From Mobula hypostoma (taxonomy: Eukaryota), in assembly GCF_963921235.1 (NCBI RefSeq), contig NC_086097.1, positions 157,978,001 to 158,042,000 on the forward strand: 64,000 bases of DNA. Reading direction: 5' to 3'. Position numbers and translations under genes: made by a program. How positions within the stretch are numbered: position 1 is the stretch's first letter; the number at the start of each line of letters is the position of its first letter. The notes below the pieces were generated by a model. The model had not been told where the DNA came from. It made no database searches and saw nothing but the letters and a program-made list of their open reading frames with translations. Below, piece after piece: positions 3,779-60,744 of the stretch.

Positions 3779-3844
3779 ATATACTTGTTTTAAATATTGT
3801 CAGTCACTTCACCCCACGGGACTCTTTAAAAAAAGAGGGGTGAA

Positions 3845-4077
3845 TGTGGTAAACCATATATATATGTGTTGTAACTTGGTTACCTGTCTGGACACACCCC
3901 TCTGCTGACTGCCCCTGTAGCTCCTCCCACAGTCCCTGAATAAAGGCGATTTCGCCATTGCTCCTCCCCCTCAGTCCAGGGGCAGACACTCAGCATGGAG
4001 GTCACATTTTACTGCGAATAAAAGCCTTTCAGTATTTACCCTACTTCCAGTCTTTTGGAGTTATTGATGGTGCATCA
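3845..4077 (+). repeat. 3' LTR of Gypsy copy A (233 bp)
   Basis: Starts TGTGGTAAACC directly after the PPT, ends GGTGCATCA, contains AATAAA, and is homologous to the LTRs at 35152 and 39341. Confidence 0.93.
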
Positions 4078-7589: not shown

Positions 7590-8300
7590 TAGGGTGGCAG
7601 CGTAGCACAGCTGGTAGAGGAGCTGCCTCACGCTCCAGCAATCTCAGTCAAATTCCGACCTCCTGTGCTGTCCAAGTGGAATTGCTTCTGTCGGTGTGGG
7701 CTCTGGAATTGCTTCTGTGTCTGTGTGGGTTCTGAATGGGTTCTGTCTGGGTTCTGGAATTGCTTCTGTCTGTGTGGGTTCTGGAATTTCTTCTGTCTGT
7801 GTGGGTTCTGGAATTGCTTCTGTGTCTATATGGGTTCTGTGTGGGTTCTGGAATTGCCTCTGTGTCTGTGTGGGTTCTGTGTGGGTTCCGGAATTGCTTC
7901 TGTTTGTGTGGGTTCTGGAAGTGCTTCTGTATCTGTATGGGTTCTGGAATTGCTTCTTTCTGTGTGGGTTCTGGAAGTGCTTCTGTGTCTGTGTGGGTTC
8001 TGTGTGGGTTTGGAATTGCCTCTGTGTCTGTGTGGGTTCTGAAATTGCCTCTGTGTCTGTGTGGGTTCTGGAATTGCTTCTGTGTCTGTGTGGGTTCCCT
8101 CCAAATGTTTTGGTTTCCTCCCACATCCCATGGTTGTGCAAGTCAGTAGGTTAATTGGCCCATGTAAGTTACTGTTAGCTTGTAGAAAAATATCAGAATC
8201 TACATGGGCTGATGGAAATGTGGGAAGAATAAAGTACAATTAGTGTAAATGGCCCTTTGCTGTTCAGCGCAGACTTGTTGGGTGGAAGGAAACATTTCTA
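7590..8300 (+). mobile_element. tRNA-derived V-SINE/HE1-like SINE expanded by an internal minisatellite
   Basis: tRNA-like head (GTAGCACAGCTGGTAGAG...GCTGCCTCAC). The body resumes after the array with GGTTTCCTCCCACATCCC...GTAGGTTAATTGGCC. Confidence 0.75.
7677..8096. repeat. Minisatellite, ~25-29-bp unit TTCTGGAATTGCTTCTGTGTCTGTGTGGG with 12-bp subrepeats
   Basis: About a dozen directly visible tandem units. Explains the six overlapping low-complexity ORFs here. Confidence 0.95.
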
Positions 8301-33067: not shown

Positions 33068-35151
33068 CTCATAAAAAGCTGGAGACTGGAAGAGTTAAAG
33101 GAAATTTTCTATTCTCTTTTTGACAACTCACAGATCACGAAATTTAAAAAGTTGCAAACTAAAAATAATGCTGATGTAATATATTTTATTTCAGTAATGA
33201 GTCTTCTGATTAAGGACTGATGCTGGAAATCAAGTCATTCATATCTTTTACCTTTTCCTCAGAATAGACAAAGGTTATCCAGAGCCCCCACTAATGTCAT
33301 ATAATATCATTCACTTACATCAGATATCTGTGGTGAATGTTGCCATCAAAAATATAAATACAGTGTGATTCATAATAAATATGAAAATATTCTTCAAATA
33401 CAGCTATCTAGCTGGGATTCCATTAAACTAACGTGATGAGTCAACTTATCAATATATATTACAATATCGGCATCATCTGCAGATGAACATTGAACTTTTG
33501 TTCATTTAAAAAGATACAGATTAACGGTCTATATATTTTGCAAGTGAGCAATACAAGGCATTTTCCCTTTTTGAAGCAAACCGACTTTGTTAACTGAAAT
33601 AAACCTATCTGCAGAAATTTCATTTTCATTGTGTTCCTTTTTCCACACATTTTATCTGGTTCAATTAACTTTAAATTACATAAATCTGTGAAAGCTTTGG
33701 AGAATTGCAGAACAATATTATCCTTCACTAGTTAATTATGATGGGCATCTTGACATTATCAGCATTCTAGGTTTGAATGGCTACTGGTATAGTGAGGAAT
33801 GCACAGAAGAAAGACGTGGTAGGAAATTATAGACAAGACAAAATTCTAACACTAACATTTTGTGACCAAATGACTCACAAAGGTTCTACAATCTAATAAT
33901 AAAAGCAGGCAAGCGCCCATCTTTCAAAATGTGCTGATCATACCAGTTGGTGGCTTTTATAACTAACTGTCAATTCAAAAGGCAGCCATTGTCTGGCTGT
34001 GGTGGAGATGGTGGGTGGGCAAAATTAAACATAATTTGGTAACTACTTGGTTTTTGTACAAACTTTTGGAATGAATCTCTTGAAATGTGAGATACTAAAA
34101 TGGACAAATTGTCCCTACTAACATTGAATAATAAGAATAGAAATAGTAAGTACATTAGTGAGAATGCAGAAGAGGTTCAGCAGAATGTTGACTGGATTAG
34201 AGAGAATCAGCTACAAGGGAAGTTTGGACAAAAGAGGATTGTTTCCTCGGAAGTGTCAGAGGCAGAGGGGCATTTTGATCTGGTATATACAATTATGAGA
34301 GGGATAGGCAGAGTAGGTAGTCAAAGTCTTTTCCCTATAGTAGGAATGATAAATGCTTAAGCACATGGATTTAGATTGAAAGGGAGAAAGATTAAAGGAA
34401 ATTTATGAATCTTTATTTTTACACTGAAACTGGTGGATTCCAGCAATGTGCTGCCAAGGGAGGCAGTGGAAGCAGATATGATGGCAATGTTTAAAAGGCA
34501 TATGAACAGACAAGGATTGGAGGGATTATAGGCCATGTTCATGCATGTGGGATTATTTAAATTGGCATCGTGTTTGGCACTGGTATTGTGTTTTGGTGCT
34601 GCACCCCTCTATGCCCATGTTTCATGTCCAAGCAACTACATGCTTTCACTTCCTGTCCCATTTTCTTTACAATCTGTCTTTATCACCTTCAGTGTGTGTA
34701 AAAAAAAGATTCCTCTGTCCTTGCAAACTATTATTCCATATTCAAAGTCTCTTTGAAGTACTTCACACTCATTTTTCCCAAAGTCATATCTAAGTTCCTT
34801 GGTCTCTTTGTTCAAATATTTGGATTTAGGAGAGGGCCAGGGGTTAATGATTCAAGGCGTAAGAGGAGGATGAAAGAGATGAAAAGGATAAATTCTGCTC
34901 CTATATCTTAGAAGATACAAGGAGAAGGGAAAGAATGGGGTTGAAAGGAGTAACAAATCAGCTATGACAGAATGGCAGGCAGTCTGGATGGGCCAAATGG
35001 CCTAATTCTGCTCCTAAATTTGTGGTCTTATGGTTTTCAATGTAGCAATACCCCAAGTGCAAAGCCCTGATTAATTTAGTTTCTGACTGCAATGTATTTC
35101 CTCTCTTTGACTACCATATCCTCTTCCAATTATTGTACTTTGTTGTTCTAC

Positions 35152-35380
35152 TGTGGTAAACCATGTATATATGTTGTAACTGGGTTACCTGTCTGGACAC
35201 ACCCCTCTGCTGACTGCCCCTGTGGCTCCTCCCACAGAGTCCTGTATAAAGGTGTTCACCTTGCCCCTCCCCCTCAGTCCAGGGGCAGACACTCACTGTG
35301 GAGGTCGTATTGTACAGCGAATAAAAGCCTTTCAGTATTTTACCAAACCTCAGTCTTTTGGAGTAATTGAAGGTGCTTCA
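35152..35380 (+). repeat. 5' LTR of copy B
   Basis: TATAAA at 35245-35250 and AATAAA at 35320-35325. Differs from the 3' LTR at 3 of 229 sites by manual alignment. Confidence 0.97.
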
Positions 35381-35406
35381 ATTTTATTTGCTGTACGTTT
35401 TAAAAC

Positions 35407-38400
35407 ATGGAACAGTCCCTGAGACCAGAAAAATTAGACCTCAATCCGCAGACACCTGAAGCTGGAAACGCTTTTGAACTCTGGCCGGCCTGCTTCAAAG
35501 CATACCTAGAGGAGATTAAAGCGACCGACCCCGTAGCGAAGCGCAGAGTTCTACTCTCCAGGGTCAGTCCACGGGTCTATTCGCTGATCAGAGACCAGCC
35601 GAACTACGACGGCGCGATGAACACACTCAAAAGACAATACCTGCGGCCGATAAACAGCGTCTATGCTCGGCACCGTTTAGCGACACAGCAACAACGTCCC
35701 GGGGAATCGAGTGCTGAGTTCGTCCAGGCCCTACGGACGCTCGTGCGAGCCTGCAATTGCCAGGAGCTGACAGCGGCGCAGCATGCAGAACTCCTAGTGA
35801 GAGACGACTTCGTCACGGGGACCAGGTCAGTGTACGTGCGCCAGCGGCTGCTGGAAAAAGCCGATCTTACCCTAAATTCGGCGATGGAGCTGGCTGATAC
35901 GTTGGAGGCCGCTCTGCATAACTCCGAGGCTCTCCAGGCACGCGATCCCCCGATGGCCTCGTGGGTGCCGCAGACCCCGCAACCTGCTGGCGAATCGACC
36001 TCGGCTGCCGCCAGTCGTGAGTCTGCGAAGTGCTACTTCTGCGGACTGGAAAAGCATCCCCGGAAACGCTGCCCGGCCCGACAAGCTACCTGCTCCAGCT
36101 GCGGAAAGAAGGCCACTTCGCCAAGGTTTGTAAGTCAAAACCACGAGCGCGATCGAGCAGTGCCGCGTGCGAGACGTGGGGGTCGCCATCTTCCCTGCAT
36201 GCCACCACCACGTGCGAGAAATGGGGGCGGCCATCTTGGTCGGTGCCACCTCCCACCACCTACGACCAACAGGTACTCACGGGGCACCCCACCACGCCGG
36301 ACCAAGACAGCGACCCCACCCTGGCTTCCGTGACCCTCAACCAAAGCACTCCCCACCAGCTCGCAAGGTCAATGATGGACATCCTGGTGGAGGGGCACAG
36401 GACAAGCTGCCTGTTTGACACAGGCGGCACGGACAGTTTTATCCACCCGGCCACGGTGCAGCATTGTGGACTCATGATATGGCCAGTCAGTCGGAGGGTC
36501 ACTATGGCCTCCAGGTCGCATACAGCAGACACCCGGGGGGGGGGGGGTTGTGTAGCGACACTAGTGGTGCAGGGCACTGAATATCGGGACTTTGTGTTAC
36601 TGGTCTTGCCTCAACTGTGTGCCCCTGTGCTGTTGGGGTTGGACTTCCAGAGCCACCTGAAAAGCGTGACAATGAAGTATGATGGGCCCCTCCCACCAAT
36701 TACTGTCATAAATCCCCTGTTTTGTAGAGATATGTCACGTACCCCGCTACTGACCACACACACACCGACCCGCGCATCCCACCCAACATCATGCCAACTG
36801 CCACACTACCGACACCACTTGCGGCCTCTCCACCCTCAGGATCCCTCCCCCACCGCTGTTCGCCAACCTGACCCCCAACTATAAACCTGTGGCAACTAAA
36901 AGCAGGAGGTACAGCGCGGGGGACAGAGCTTTCATTAAGTCGGAGGTGCAGCGGCTGCTGAGGGAGGGGGTCACTGAGGCAAGCACAAGTCTTTGGAGGG
37001 CGCAGGTGGTGGTTGTTCGGAACAGAGAGAAGAATAGGATGGTCGTGGACTATAGCCAGACCATCAATAGGTTCACGCAGCTCGACGCGTACCCTCTACC
37101 CTGCATCGCGGATGTGGTCAATCAGATAGCACAGTACAAGGTGTACTCAACCATAGCCCTAAAATCCGCTTACCATCAGCTCCCCATCCGCCGGGAGGAC
37201 CGCCCTTACACTGCCTTCGAGGCGGATGGCAGGTTTTAACACTTCCTGCACGTCCCCTTTGGTGTCACAAATGGTGTATCTGTCTTCCAGAGGGCAATGG
37301 ATCGGATGGTGGACCAGTGCCAACTGAAGGCCATGTTCCCATATCTGGATAACATCACCATCTGCGGTCATGACCAGCAGGATCACGACAACAACCTCCA
37401 AAAATTTCTCCAAGCGGCCAAATCTTTCAACCTCACCTATAACAAGGACAAGTGTGTATTTGGGACCACCCGACTTGCTATCCTTGGGTGTGTCGTGGAG
37501 AATGGAGTCATTGGCCCTGACCCCGACCGTATGCGCCCCTTGTTGGAACTCGCTCTTCCCAATACCCTCAGAGCCCTCAAAAGGTGCCTGGGCTTCTTTT
37601 CATATTACGCCCAATGGGTCTCTAACTATGCAGACAAGGCCCACCCCCTGGTCAAGTCCACCACATTCCCCCTCTCTGCCGAGGCCCACACGGCCTTCAA
37701 CCACATAAAAGGGGACATTGCCAAAGCAGCAATGCATGCGGTGGATGAGGCCATTCCCTTCCAAGTAGAGAGTGACGCCTCCGACTTTGCGCTGGCTGCT
37801 ACCCTCAACCAGGCAGGAAGACCAGTGGCGTTATTCTCCCGTACCCTTCAAGGCCCTGAAATTCGGCACTCTGTGGTAGAGGAAGAGGCCCAGGCCATAG
37901 TGGAAGCTATAAGGCACTGGAGGCACTATTTTGCCGGCAAAAGGTTCACCCTGCTAACTGACCAGCGCTCAGTCGCATTCACGTTTAATAATCAGCAGCG
38001 GAGCAAAATCTAAAATGATAAAATTCTGAGGTGGAGAATCGAACTCTCCACCTACAACTATGACATCATGTACAGGCCTGGGAAGCTCAACGAGCCCTCC
38101 GATGCCCTGTCCCGGGGAACATGCGCCAGCATGCAGATCGACCGGCTATACGCCCTACATGTAGACCTTTGCCACCCGGGAGTCACCCGGCTTTTCCACT
38201 TCGTGAAAGCCCAGAACCTGCCTTACTCCCTTGAGGAGATCAGGATGATGACCAGGGACTGCCAAGTCTGAGCAGAGTGCAAAATGCACTTCTACCGACC
38301 CGAAAAGGCACCACTCATCAAGGCCACCCGCCCCTTTGAGCGACTGAGTGTTGACTTTAAGGGCCCCCTTCCCTCCACCGACCGCAATGTGTACTTTCTT

Positions 38401-39270
38401 AACGTAACTGACGAGTACTCACGGTTCCCCTTCGCCATCCCCTGCCCCGACACCACTACCACGTCAGTTATAAAAGCCCTGCGCAAGCTCTTCACTCTGT
38501 TCGGATACCCATGCTATATCCACAGTGACAGAGGGTCCTCGTTTATGAGTGATGAGCTGCGCCAATATCTACTGGCTAGGGGAATTGCAACCAGTAGGAC
38601 CACGAGCTATAATCCCCGGGGGAATGGACAGGTAGAGGAGGAGAATGGCACAGTGTGGAGAGCCACACGCTTAGCCCTCAGGTCAAAGGGACTGTCAGTC
38701 TCTCACTGGCAGGAGGTCCTTCCCGAGGCACTCCACTCCATCCGCTCCCTGTTATGCACAGCCACCAATGCCACCCCTCATGAGCGGCTCTTTTCTTTTC
38801 CCAGAAAATCGAACACTGGAACCACCCTACCATCTTGGCTGATGTCCCCGGGGCCAGTGCTGCTCCGGAAACATGCGAGGAGCAATAAATACTCCCCGAT
38901 AGTCAAGAGGGTTCACTTACTTCATGCGAACCCCCAGTTTGCCTACGCGGTTTTACCTGATGGGCGGGAGGACACGGTCTCCATCCGCGACCTGGCGCCC
39001 GCAGGAGCTCCGGGCCCCTACCCTGAACACTCTGTGGTGACTATTGACCCCGTACCCACAAATGTATGTACCTACGAGACACCGTGCACCCCAAACCCTA
39101 TACAGACACCACACGACACTCCCATACCGGGCGCGACACACACGCATGAGGGATTACCGACGCCTAACGTGCTGGCACCTGAAGTCAGGCCGGAGCCAGC
39201 ACAACCGCCATCGCCGGTGCTACGTAGATCACAGCGACGGACTCGACCGCCTGATAGACTTAACCTGTAA
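35407..39270 (+). pseudogene. Disrupted single-ORF gag-pol of Gypsy copy B
   Basis: Two zinc knuckles (CYFCGLEKHPRKRC; CSSCGKK/GHFAKVC across a frameshift), LFDTG, YLDN, ESDASD, LHVDLCHPG...CQV*AEC, and VDFKG/HSDRG/GQVE. Stops at 37237, 38011 and 38269; frameshifts near 36110 and ~36770. Confidence 0.95.
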
Positions 39271-39340
39271 ATATACTTCTTGTAAATATTGTCAGTCACT
39301 TCACCCCGCGGGACTCTTTTTAAAAAAAAGGAGGGGTGAA

Positions 39341-39569
39341 TGTGGTAAACCATGTATATATGTTGTAACTGGGTTACCTGTCTGGACACACCCCTCTGCT
39401 GACTGCCCCTGTGGCTCCTCCCACAGAGTCCTGTGTAAAGGTGTTCACCTTGCCCCTCCCCCTCAGTCCGAGGGCAGACACTCACTGTGGAGGTCGTATT
39501 GTACAGCGAATAAAAGCCTTTCAGTATTTTACCAAACCTCAGTCTTTTGGAGTAATTGAAGGTGCTTCA
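39341..39569 (+). repeat. 3' LTR of copy B
   Basis: Follows the PPT AAAAAAAAGGAGGGGTGAA and is followed by the TSD TCTAC. Confidence 0.97.
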
Positions 39570-40299
39570 TCTACACTGGGATCATTTCTTTGCATTTCAC
39601 TCCTGGCTTCCCTAATGTACCACAAAATATCCCACTATGACTTCCCCATCTATAATATACAACAATGGAGCTCCTGCACATCCTTATCCACACGCCTCTT
39701 CGTTGGTGACAGTACCCTCAGTCATCAATTTAGCTTTCAATGGAATGGTACAATAACCTCGTCCTACCTCTGCCACATCTTTTGCTGGATGTTGGCCAAG
39801 CAGTGCAATTTAAAGTCACAAGTTTGTATGATGACTATGCAGAATCATTGAAGCCATTGTCTTCACTCATTTTCCCTGCTTTCCATCACCAAACATGAAG
39901 ACATGGATCCACTTGTCATGTTTTACACCATTCATTCAGACATAACTAAATGTTTGTGTGTTGCTAGACCTTGGCTCAGATCTGGCTCCTAGCTCCTCGA
40001 TAATAGAAAATAAATTCTTATATAGCACCTTCCACTTTTCGCACTGCACCAGCCCACACAGCAAACTGTTTTAACATTTTTTTTAATCTTATGGAAGATA
40101 GTCCAATATTCTCTTTACTAATCCAGTAAATCAGTGACACTGGATTGTTCAGAACTCATCCTGCTTCACATAATCTTGCTCAGCAAGGTCTGGGTATAGC
40201 TTCATTATACACTTTGTACTCATGCACCCCCTGAATCATTTACCATCCATCCCAACCATTAATTTCCACCCCTTCAGCTGCACCCTCTGATAATCTGTT

Positions 40300-42406: not shown

Positions 42407-43153
42407 TCAGTTAGATTAGCTGCCAAAATATTGACATGTAAATCTAATTTAACTTTTAACTACTGATGCTGTCCAATACAAATTAGCATGGAAAATTTGT
42501 ATTAGCATACAAATCAGACAATGCCCCCACCACCCATTGTGCATAGACACCATGAACAATCTCTAAGTATAATGGATGGGCAAAATTCTTGATGCTACTT
42601 TATATCTAATCATTGTATTTTATAACAGGGGCAAGTGCAACACTTGAACAGGGCAGCCACCGTTTCTCTTAATTTTAGAGATGTTTGCTTTTAATTCATC
42701 TGTAACTTAGATGTCATTCCAAATAACTCAGACATTATTTTAAATTTAGTCATTGTGTTTTTAGTAATTGAATTGCCAGTATGCTGTTTTGCCCTGAATA
42801 GAGTAACACTCCAATCTCATTGCCCTCAGCAGTGACAATAACACTCTAACTAACCAAGTAACTAACTGACTTGTGGGACCAAACTAGAAACTATTTGAGA
42901 TCCACTGCAACCAAGATACTCTCAATGAGAAGGGCTCAGCCTGCAGCAATATGTGGATGGACTGTTGTGCAGAGATGACAGGCTTCTTGTTAACGATTCT
43001 ACACAAGACTTACAAAAGTCATTGATCCTGAAACACAGTGGTTGCCCTTTAAATTAATATACAAAGGTCCATGCTAATTTGTATTGGACAGCATCAGTAG
43101 TTAAAAGTTAAATTAGATTTACATGCCAATATTTTGGCAGCTAATCTAACTGA
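42407..43153. repeat. 86-bp inverted repeat pair (42407-42492 / 43068-43153) with a 575-bp spacer
   Basis: The arms are reverse complements with a single mismatch. Confidence 0.95.
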
Positions 43154-59447: not shown

Positions 59448-60545
59448 GATCAGTAGGTCAATTGGTTACATGGGTGTAATTGGGTGGCACAGGCTCATAG
59501 GGATCGAAGCACCTATTAGCATGTTGTATCTCTAAACGAATAAGTAATACTCCTGTCAATCACACCTGATACCCACAATGTTGGAAATGACTAGGGCAGA
59601 TTTTTGCATGTAACTTTCATGCAACGATCTAGCACTCACTGCAACTTTAAGGAGAAAAATCAATAGATATTATGTAACTGTCTTGCCCTCACTGCAGCCT
59701 GCCAGAAGATTAAATATGTATTGTATAACCACTCAGCATGAATTACATCTTGATGAGGAAATCTAACTTCTTACATCAAAACGTTGGTTCAATTTCAATC
59801 AATTTTATTTAAAATCTCGGCAGACTGCTTGTTGTACTGCCTTGTCACTACTACTGAACAATAAACTTCTTTTAATGTAAAGTATTGTTTGTTGCAAGTC
59901 ATGTTCCATCTCCAGCTCACTGATAATCACAGTGCAGTTCACTAATTGACAGAGAAGTCAACAGGCAGGAGTTTTATACTTTATGTAAGGAATTTTAATA
60001 CTTCAGAATAAAACACTTCCTTTTGTATGCACATAGTCTTTGCTTCATATTTGCCCCAGGCAGAAATAACAGAGCTAAGTAGAGAGTCAGATTTATATTC
60101 TTCAACAATGTACAATCTGTCAGCTCCAGAATAGCTTCTCATGCAACATAACATTTTCATTAGCCATCTCAGCTGACATTGTGCCTTCTCTGACAAAATT
60201 GGTGAATTTTATTGTGTTTCGGAAAAACTAACGATGGGACCATCTTGTGTACATATTATTTTCAATAGGAATGATACTGGGAATGTTCATTATGCATTCA
60301 CTTGGTTCCATTTGAGATAACATTTCTTCCTTTAATTAGCATCTTCAGATCAAACCAAAATCTAGCTTTGATTTTCTTTTAGCTTTAACACTTCTATTCT
60401 GATTGTCTGCCTTCTTTTCTTTTAAGAGGTTTTTGGAAGCAGGTATGATAGAGGGGTTGAAGTGGATTTTAGGTGAACACATGAATATGCAATGGATGAA
60501 AGAACATAGATCACGTGCAGGCAGAAGAAATTAAGTTTAATTTTG

Positions 60546-60744
60546 GTGAACGCAGCAGGCCAAGCAGCATCTATAGGAAGAGGCGCAGTCGACGTTTCAG
60601 GCCGAGACCCTTAGTCCTGACGAAGGGTCTCCGCCTGAAACGTCGACTGCGCCTCTTCCTATAGATGCTGCTTGGCCTGCTGCGTTCACCAGCAACTTTG
60701 ATGTATGTAGCTTGAATTTCCAGCATCTGCAGAATTTCTGTTGT
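60546..60744 (+). mobile_element. Young fold-back Penelope terminal-repeat-derived element with hammerhead motif
   Basis: Perfect 59-bp stem (60544-60602 / 60633-60691), AGTC-CTGACGA...GAAACGTC-GACT at 60613-60648, and 15-bp TSD TTAAGTTTAATTTTG (60531-60545, 60745-60759). Confidence 0.9.

Follow-up and report, generated by a model that had tools for sequence, protein, structure and literature searches.

Layout of the element and pairing between its LTR and leader

The window analyzed here, a 64,000-nucleotide stretch of the Mobula hypostoma genome, contains a Gypsy element, which we designated element B, at positions 35152-39569, with 229-nt LTRs and a 5-bp target site duplication (TSD). The parts of the element described below lie on the forward strand. 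The 5′ LTR (35152-35380) has TG...CA ends and differs at 3 positions from the 3′ LTR (39341-39569); the edges at 35152 and 35380 were also visible from aligned sequencing contigs. The left TSD copy, TCTAC, occupies 35147-35151 and the right copy 39570-39574. Between the LTRs lies a gag-PR-RT-RNase H-IN coding region (35407-39270) that is fragmented by frameshifts and stops. It encodes two CCHC knuckles and YLDN in RT, and carries neither a chromodomain nor SH3_Tf2-1. YLDN is the RT active-site motif of most lineage members, instead of YxDD. A polypurine tract, read from the sequence, is located at 39322-39336, 4 nt upstream of the 3′ LTR; element B thus combines the TG...CA LTRs, TSD, PR-RT-RH-IN order and polypurine tract of Ty3/Gypsy elements. 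The tract is within an inverted repeat (TTCACCCC ... GGGGTGAA) at 39300-39340, and at 3808-3844 in a second copy; the repeat stops exactly at the 3′ LTR and possibly forms a hairpin round the plus-strand primer.

The second copy, copy A, belongs to a different subfamily (A). Only its PBS end (1-6) and what follows are in the window, the remainder lying upstream (locus L031), and its 3′ LTR (3845-4077) carries the subfamily-A primer arm at 4009-4023. The window also contains a GT-rich tandem repeat, degenerate and built from units of ~13, 27 and 40 nt (7618-8150), and a MITE-like pair of 86-nt inverted repeats that are 99% complementary and 575 nt apart (42407-42492 and 43068-43153). At 60544-60691, a common interspersed repeat forms an almost perfect palindrome with 73-nt arms 2 nt apart.

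The initial annotation had proposed that element B lacks a tRNA primer-binding site and that its PBS pairs instead with its own LTR, and both observations were reproduced. The 5′ LTR ends in TCA at 35380 and is followed, without TGG, by a single A at 35381 and then by the helix arm, while the gag ATG at 35407 lies 26 nt past the LTR end. The PBS (35382-35396) matches LTR positions 35312-35326 in reverse complement: 14 of the pairs are Watson-Crick, and the remaining one is G.U. The LTR arm, a candidate self-primer in R, includes AATAAA at 35320-35325, and the putative cut site follows 35326. The two arms enclose a 55-nt loop (35327-35381) that starts with GCC and has the one-nt spacer as its final base. 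Folding of 35270-35420 yielded both the primer helix and the inner LTR stem that had been described, with a z-score of -3.66 that was equalled by 0 of 200 shuffles.

Where both arms could be read in subfamily B, the 15-bp match was perfect in 19 of 28 copies, with 1-2 differences in the other 9. Since 19 of 28 copies pair perfectly, the single G.U of element B looks like CpG decay. In copy A, the 3′ LTR arm and the leader remnant have the sequences first described, and the sequence predicted for the region upstream of the window (LTR-CA, one A and a T-rich arm) was found there. Two compensatory changes had been proposed between the copies. These stand as a difference between the subfamilies. 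The 5′ LTR of copy A itself carries two decay changes that weaken its own helix, which has 9 Watson-Crick pairs and was matched by 1 of 60 shuffles. Within subfamily A one further pair covaries (G-C versus T-A); it is T-type in both arms at 10 of 30 loci and discordant at 4 of 30.

A TATA-like TATAAA (35245-35250; AATAAA-like in subfamily A), a putative promoter element, and an Inr-like TCAGTCC (35274-35280) predict that the transcript probably starts near A35276, LTR position 125, ~36 nt upstream of the primer arm, unlike in Tf1. The stops of the 11 partial run-ons fall into two groups, 5 at LTR positions 121-126, close to this start, and 6 at 138-147. Of six run-ons recovered once the prediction had been made, only 2 agree with it. 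One that stops in the 121-126 range, L225, has its TSD three bases beyond the stop. The primer may be a capped 5′ fragment of ~50 nt rather than an 11-mer at the very 5′ end.

Conservation of the helix and placement of the lineage

The closest named proteins to those of the element are from rays and sharks (68-93%), followed by proteins from sea anemone, coral, Trichinella and many other assemblies (54-61%); a search of viral contigs found no relatives. A metagenome scan identified 80 loci, of which 46 had a gag start and enough upstream DNA to be read and the other 34 were excluded. In 40 of the 46 readable loci the LTR-leader helix was better than all 60 shuffles. A significant helix was absent from 6 of the 46, some of which, but not all, are visibly mutated or truncated. 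Several of these loci are copies of the same families, and many come from few assemblies. At L108:5400-10600, a member of the lineage hosts a nested insertion of another Gypsy element, one that has a TGG primer site. L114 and L141 have the order pol-LTR-gag with a single LTR between, consistent with a tandem element or a collapsed assembly.

To compare distinct arms, 28 were assembled, 25 picked from the helix-positive metagenome loci and three from ray copies. The helices of the lineage are 10-19 bp long and nearly pure Watson-Crick, their letters differ between families, and they end at WAAA|RCC. Watson-Crick pairs filled 356 of 364 cells at pairs 1-13, where a single G.U occurred, and 245 of 252 at pairs 5-13, compared to 0.17-0.29 in slid controls and 0.48 in cross-family pairing; these percentages are upper estimates, given the optimised register and the lack of independence among rows. 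Most helix positions have 3-4 pair types. None of the 28 arms begins with TGG, and the spacer base is A in 26; the one-base register was set in this alignment, and it arose freely in most rows of the 46-locus scan. The LTR arm terminates in TAAA or AAAA in 26 of 28, with GCC or ACC next in 25, and the loops span 21-87 nt. A stem of at least 4 pairs directly after the cut site was observed in 18 of 27 cases, against 7.2 expected. AATAAA or ATTAAA is present within 18 of the 28 arms, and 3 of the 10 arms without the hexamer have one in the loop. The pairing pattern across the lineage is far beyond chance, and the complementarity between LTR and leader is maintained while the letters change. Covariation of this kind, read from aligned arms, shows pairing or templated copying, not cleavage.

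The description of two Gag zinc knuckles and no chromodomain was correct, and neither a chromodomain nor SH3_Tf2-1 was found after integrase in 20 relatives or in the window element. RT-RNase H trees placed the lineage outside the chromovirus clade. In the LG+G4 tree of 27 rows, whose comparators were labelled by motif and did not include Tf1 and sushi themselves, the lineage formed its own long-stemmed clade (100/100), and the chromodomain-type comparators grouped without it (94/99). The lineage is a widespread group of animal, non-chromovirus Ty3/Gypsy retrotransposons.

The labels "Mag-like" and "sushi-like" given to comparators here are our own assignments from motifs and Pfam domains. The suggestion that element B is itself Mag-like was upheld for Gag, since the lineage capsid profile matched 8 of 8 Mag-like loci and none of the 19 remaining gypsy comparators. 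For RT-RNase H it holds weakly: grouping with Mag-like elements had an SH-aLRT of 88 in a quick tree and 75/61 in the LG+G4 tree. The lineage PR and IN profiles scored higher on non-Mag elements. The lineage shares a Mag-type capsid, a double CCHC knuckle and short LTRs with Mag, yet it is a separate long-stemmed clade, and TGG sites were present in 6 of 6 Mag-like comparators with an LTR found, as opposed to 0 of 28 lineage arms. No helix longer than 7 bp occurred in these 6 controls; in 2 more, no LTR was found. The Mag-like controls (L283-L290), taken from the ray genome, have 135-200-nt LTRs and the primer site TGGTGTCAGAAG.

The layout of the lineage may resemble that of Cigr-1 of Ciona, which was reportedly described by Simmen and Bird (2000) with ~245-bp LTRs, one ORF of ~1200 aa, and a Gag like that of an echinoderm Mag-type element alongside a pol of another type. 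Molluscs are reported to carry a Cigr-1 clade (PMC6238403). Saci2/lennie was considered as a name for the lineage and set apart, as these elements are described with tRNA sites (PMC12471100, PMC4558846).

Self-priming itself is known from the Tf1/sushi group. Tf1/Tf2 of S. pombe, Tj1 of S. japonicus and other Tf1/sushi elements are described (PMC4600332, PMC5341516, PMC6317226) as lacking a tRNA PBS, as having a PBS complementary to a 5′ LTR stretch, and as requiring cleavage to generate the primer. The present lineage likewise has a PBS complementary to its own 5′ LTR and no tRNA site, but it differs in having no chromodomain or SH3_Tf2-1 (0/20), in its position outside the chromovirus clade and in its Mag-like Gag. 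The same genome contains sushi-like chromoviruses (L184-L189) with an LTR-PBS complement of their own and at least 420 5′ junctions. Their helix is 10-11 bp with a 175-nt loop (found in 2 of 5 decayed loci and partial in the others), whereas that of the lineage is 10-19 bp with a 21-87-nt loop and a WAAA|RCC end. The sushi-like arm lies ~30 nt after a TATA-like motif, and the lineage arm probably ~36 nt inside R. Self-priming is also predicted, with LTR-PBS complementarity of at least 10 bp, for plant copia TAR/Houba/Osr-1 and moss Tcn1 (PMC6317226). Unlike the lineage, these belong to another superfamily or to the chromoviruses; that self-priming arose more than once makes the lineage case less surprising.

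In the literature covered, which did not extend to Repbase, GyDB, Dfam and older papers, no paper on self-priming in non-chromovirus animal Gypsy elements was found, and the lineage is probably undescribed in this respect. Self-priming likely arose in it independently, as the initial annotation had suggested, but the RT tree leaves a sister position to the chromoviruses standing (p-AU 0.39, not rejected).

Fold-back insertions in the ray genome

At 43 loci the LTR and ATTTT were present without the normal leader next, and in 37 of the 43 the sequence ran on into the LTR of the same copy in reverse-complement orientation. A wider pattern recovered at least 80 such fold-back loci compared to at least 930 normal junctions. 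Most fold-backs reach LTR position 1 and so form ~405-bp palindromic inserts with a U3 end at either side. When 61 of the loci were inspected, both ends were readable in 25. Twenty of these were free-standing, with a perfect 5-bp TSD in 15 of 20 and at most one mismatch in 19 of 20. The remaining 5 were flagged as fused to the 3′ end of another element, one of them (L083) wrongly. Structures in which the LTR and PBS continue as the reverse complement of the same LTR are new here.

The fold-back LTRs belong to both subfamilies and are scattered over the LTR tree, with 18 changes, at least 5 of them forced; normal copies in this tree had been chosen for their resemblance to those in the window, which biases the comparison with shuffles. 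This scatter indicated that fold-backs arose repeatedly, and a single amplified derivative family was rejected on the same ground. The inserts look like integrated fold-back plus-strand strong-stop DNA. In addition, 8 rearranged copies (L022, L024, L076, L077, L088, L090, L210 and L211) exit the element exactly at the PBS end via short homology. An inverted LTR+PBS piece recurs at these loci; a 7-nt homology links it to the protease region (element positions 1305-1311), and the other junctions differ. Tf1 cDNA is reported to retain a single-stranded tail of PBS sequence and to integrate through homology to the PBS (PMC11042837); the annealing of that tail to homologous DNA is a likeness to the present lineage.

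Fold-backs place a DNA end at the PBS, and another priming RNA of the same sequence would yield them too. They are not a general mark of self-priming, because the sushi-like family of the same genome gave 0 fold-backs against 420 normal junctions, in a search whose pattern derived from three loci of an older family. We conjecture that this contrast could stem from the lineage studied here having a longer primer.

Probable self-priming, alternative readings and significance

The covariation across the lineage, the fixed one-base spacing, and the fold-backs that end or turn at the PBS together support the reading of the initial annotation. In this lineage the RNA of the element itself very probably serves as the primer for minus-strand DNA synthesis. 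In the proposed pathway, a 10-19-nt stretch of R (35312-35326 in element B) folds back on the PBS, which a single base separates from the LTR; this pairing is shown by the covariation. A second stem that begins at the next base, in the loop, would stack on the primer helix, for which there is moderate support. The RNA would then be cut after WAAA, presumably by the RNase H of the element as in Tf1, leaving a 3′-OH from which RT would copy the spacer, U5 and the rest of R before transferring to the 3′ R. Plus-strand strong-stop DNA would in turn copy the primer, so that the PBS would be rewritten from the LTR in every cycle; such rewriting would explain the near-pure Watson-Crick covariation. 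Because its tail is complementary to the LTR, the plus strand could anneal back on its own or on a second strong-stop molecule. Extension of the annealed strand may be the route to the ~405-bp molecules with two U3 ends whose products are present in the genome, and integrase would insert these molecules with a 5-bp TSD.

Other roles for the helix must account for the same arms and junctions. That it mainly conceals the poly(A) signal of the 5′ LTR, an HIV-like occlusion with another primer in use, fits with a helix that is possible solely at the RNA 5′ end and with the hexamer in the arm, AATAAA here and AATAAA or ATTAAA in 18 of 28 arms. We consider it improbable, since 10 of the 28 arms lack the hexamer, since occlusion would require neither the one-base spacer after CA nor the avoidance of G.U, and since it leaves the elements without a primer site (TGG in 0 of 28) and the DNA ends at the PBS unaccounted for. 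Masking, which the initial annotation had raised as an additional or alternative function, may thus be a second role and a side benefit in some families, but with the hexamer in only 18 of 28 arms it is not the general function.

Pairings between LTR and leader occur in retroviruses, and the leader is short here, with the gag ATG 10 nt from the helix. Both are in keeping with a structure for packaging, dimerisation or translation control, with a tRNA primer bound elsewhere or in split form. This is very improbable, given that priming must begin no more than a few bases from where the LTR ends, a spot taken by the helix arm in every family, and that the fold-back and jump junctions fall at the far end of that arm. 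Least probable, to the point of being remote, is binding of the PBS to an internal tRNA fragment or other host small RNA, with the LTR complement incidental. Half-tRNA priming does exist in copia elements (PMC6317226); yet the arms vary between families, and even within a subfamily, in step with their own LTR, and an Rfam search of 35100-35500 returned no match.

A broader reading joins several parts. Self-priming would have been invented independently, and so far without description, in a Gypsy lineage that ranges from cnidarians and nematodes to sharks and rays. The primer would be internal and cut at WAAA|RCC, a conserved helix junction beside the poly(A) signal, the PBS would be rewritten from it in each cycle, and palindromes would be seeded as a by-product. 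Taken as a whole, this combination is plausible and somewhat short of an even chance. If it is true, the lineage would be free of host tRNAs and of tRNA-fragment silencing. Paired strong-stop DNAs would integrate as ~405-bp palindromes running from U3 to U3, with a frequency that reaches roughly one for every twelve normal 5′ junctions, and an LTR retrotransposon would seed MITE-like inverted repeats that are potential sources of hairpin RNA.

The literature covered links self-priming to the Tf1/sushi chromoviruses, with predictions for a small number of plant lineages besides. If a second Gypsy lineage, found across animals and with a distinct geometry, primes itself, then tRNA priming can be dispensed with and replaced, and the layout would explain why PBS-based annotators overlook such elements. 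The lineage would also provide a large natural alignment that pinpoints the features an RNase H needs to recognise in an RNA duplex before cutting it, and its fold-back inserts would be genomic records of a reverse-transcription intermediate as well as a source of short palindromic repeats.
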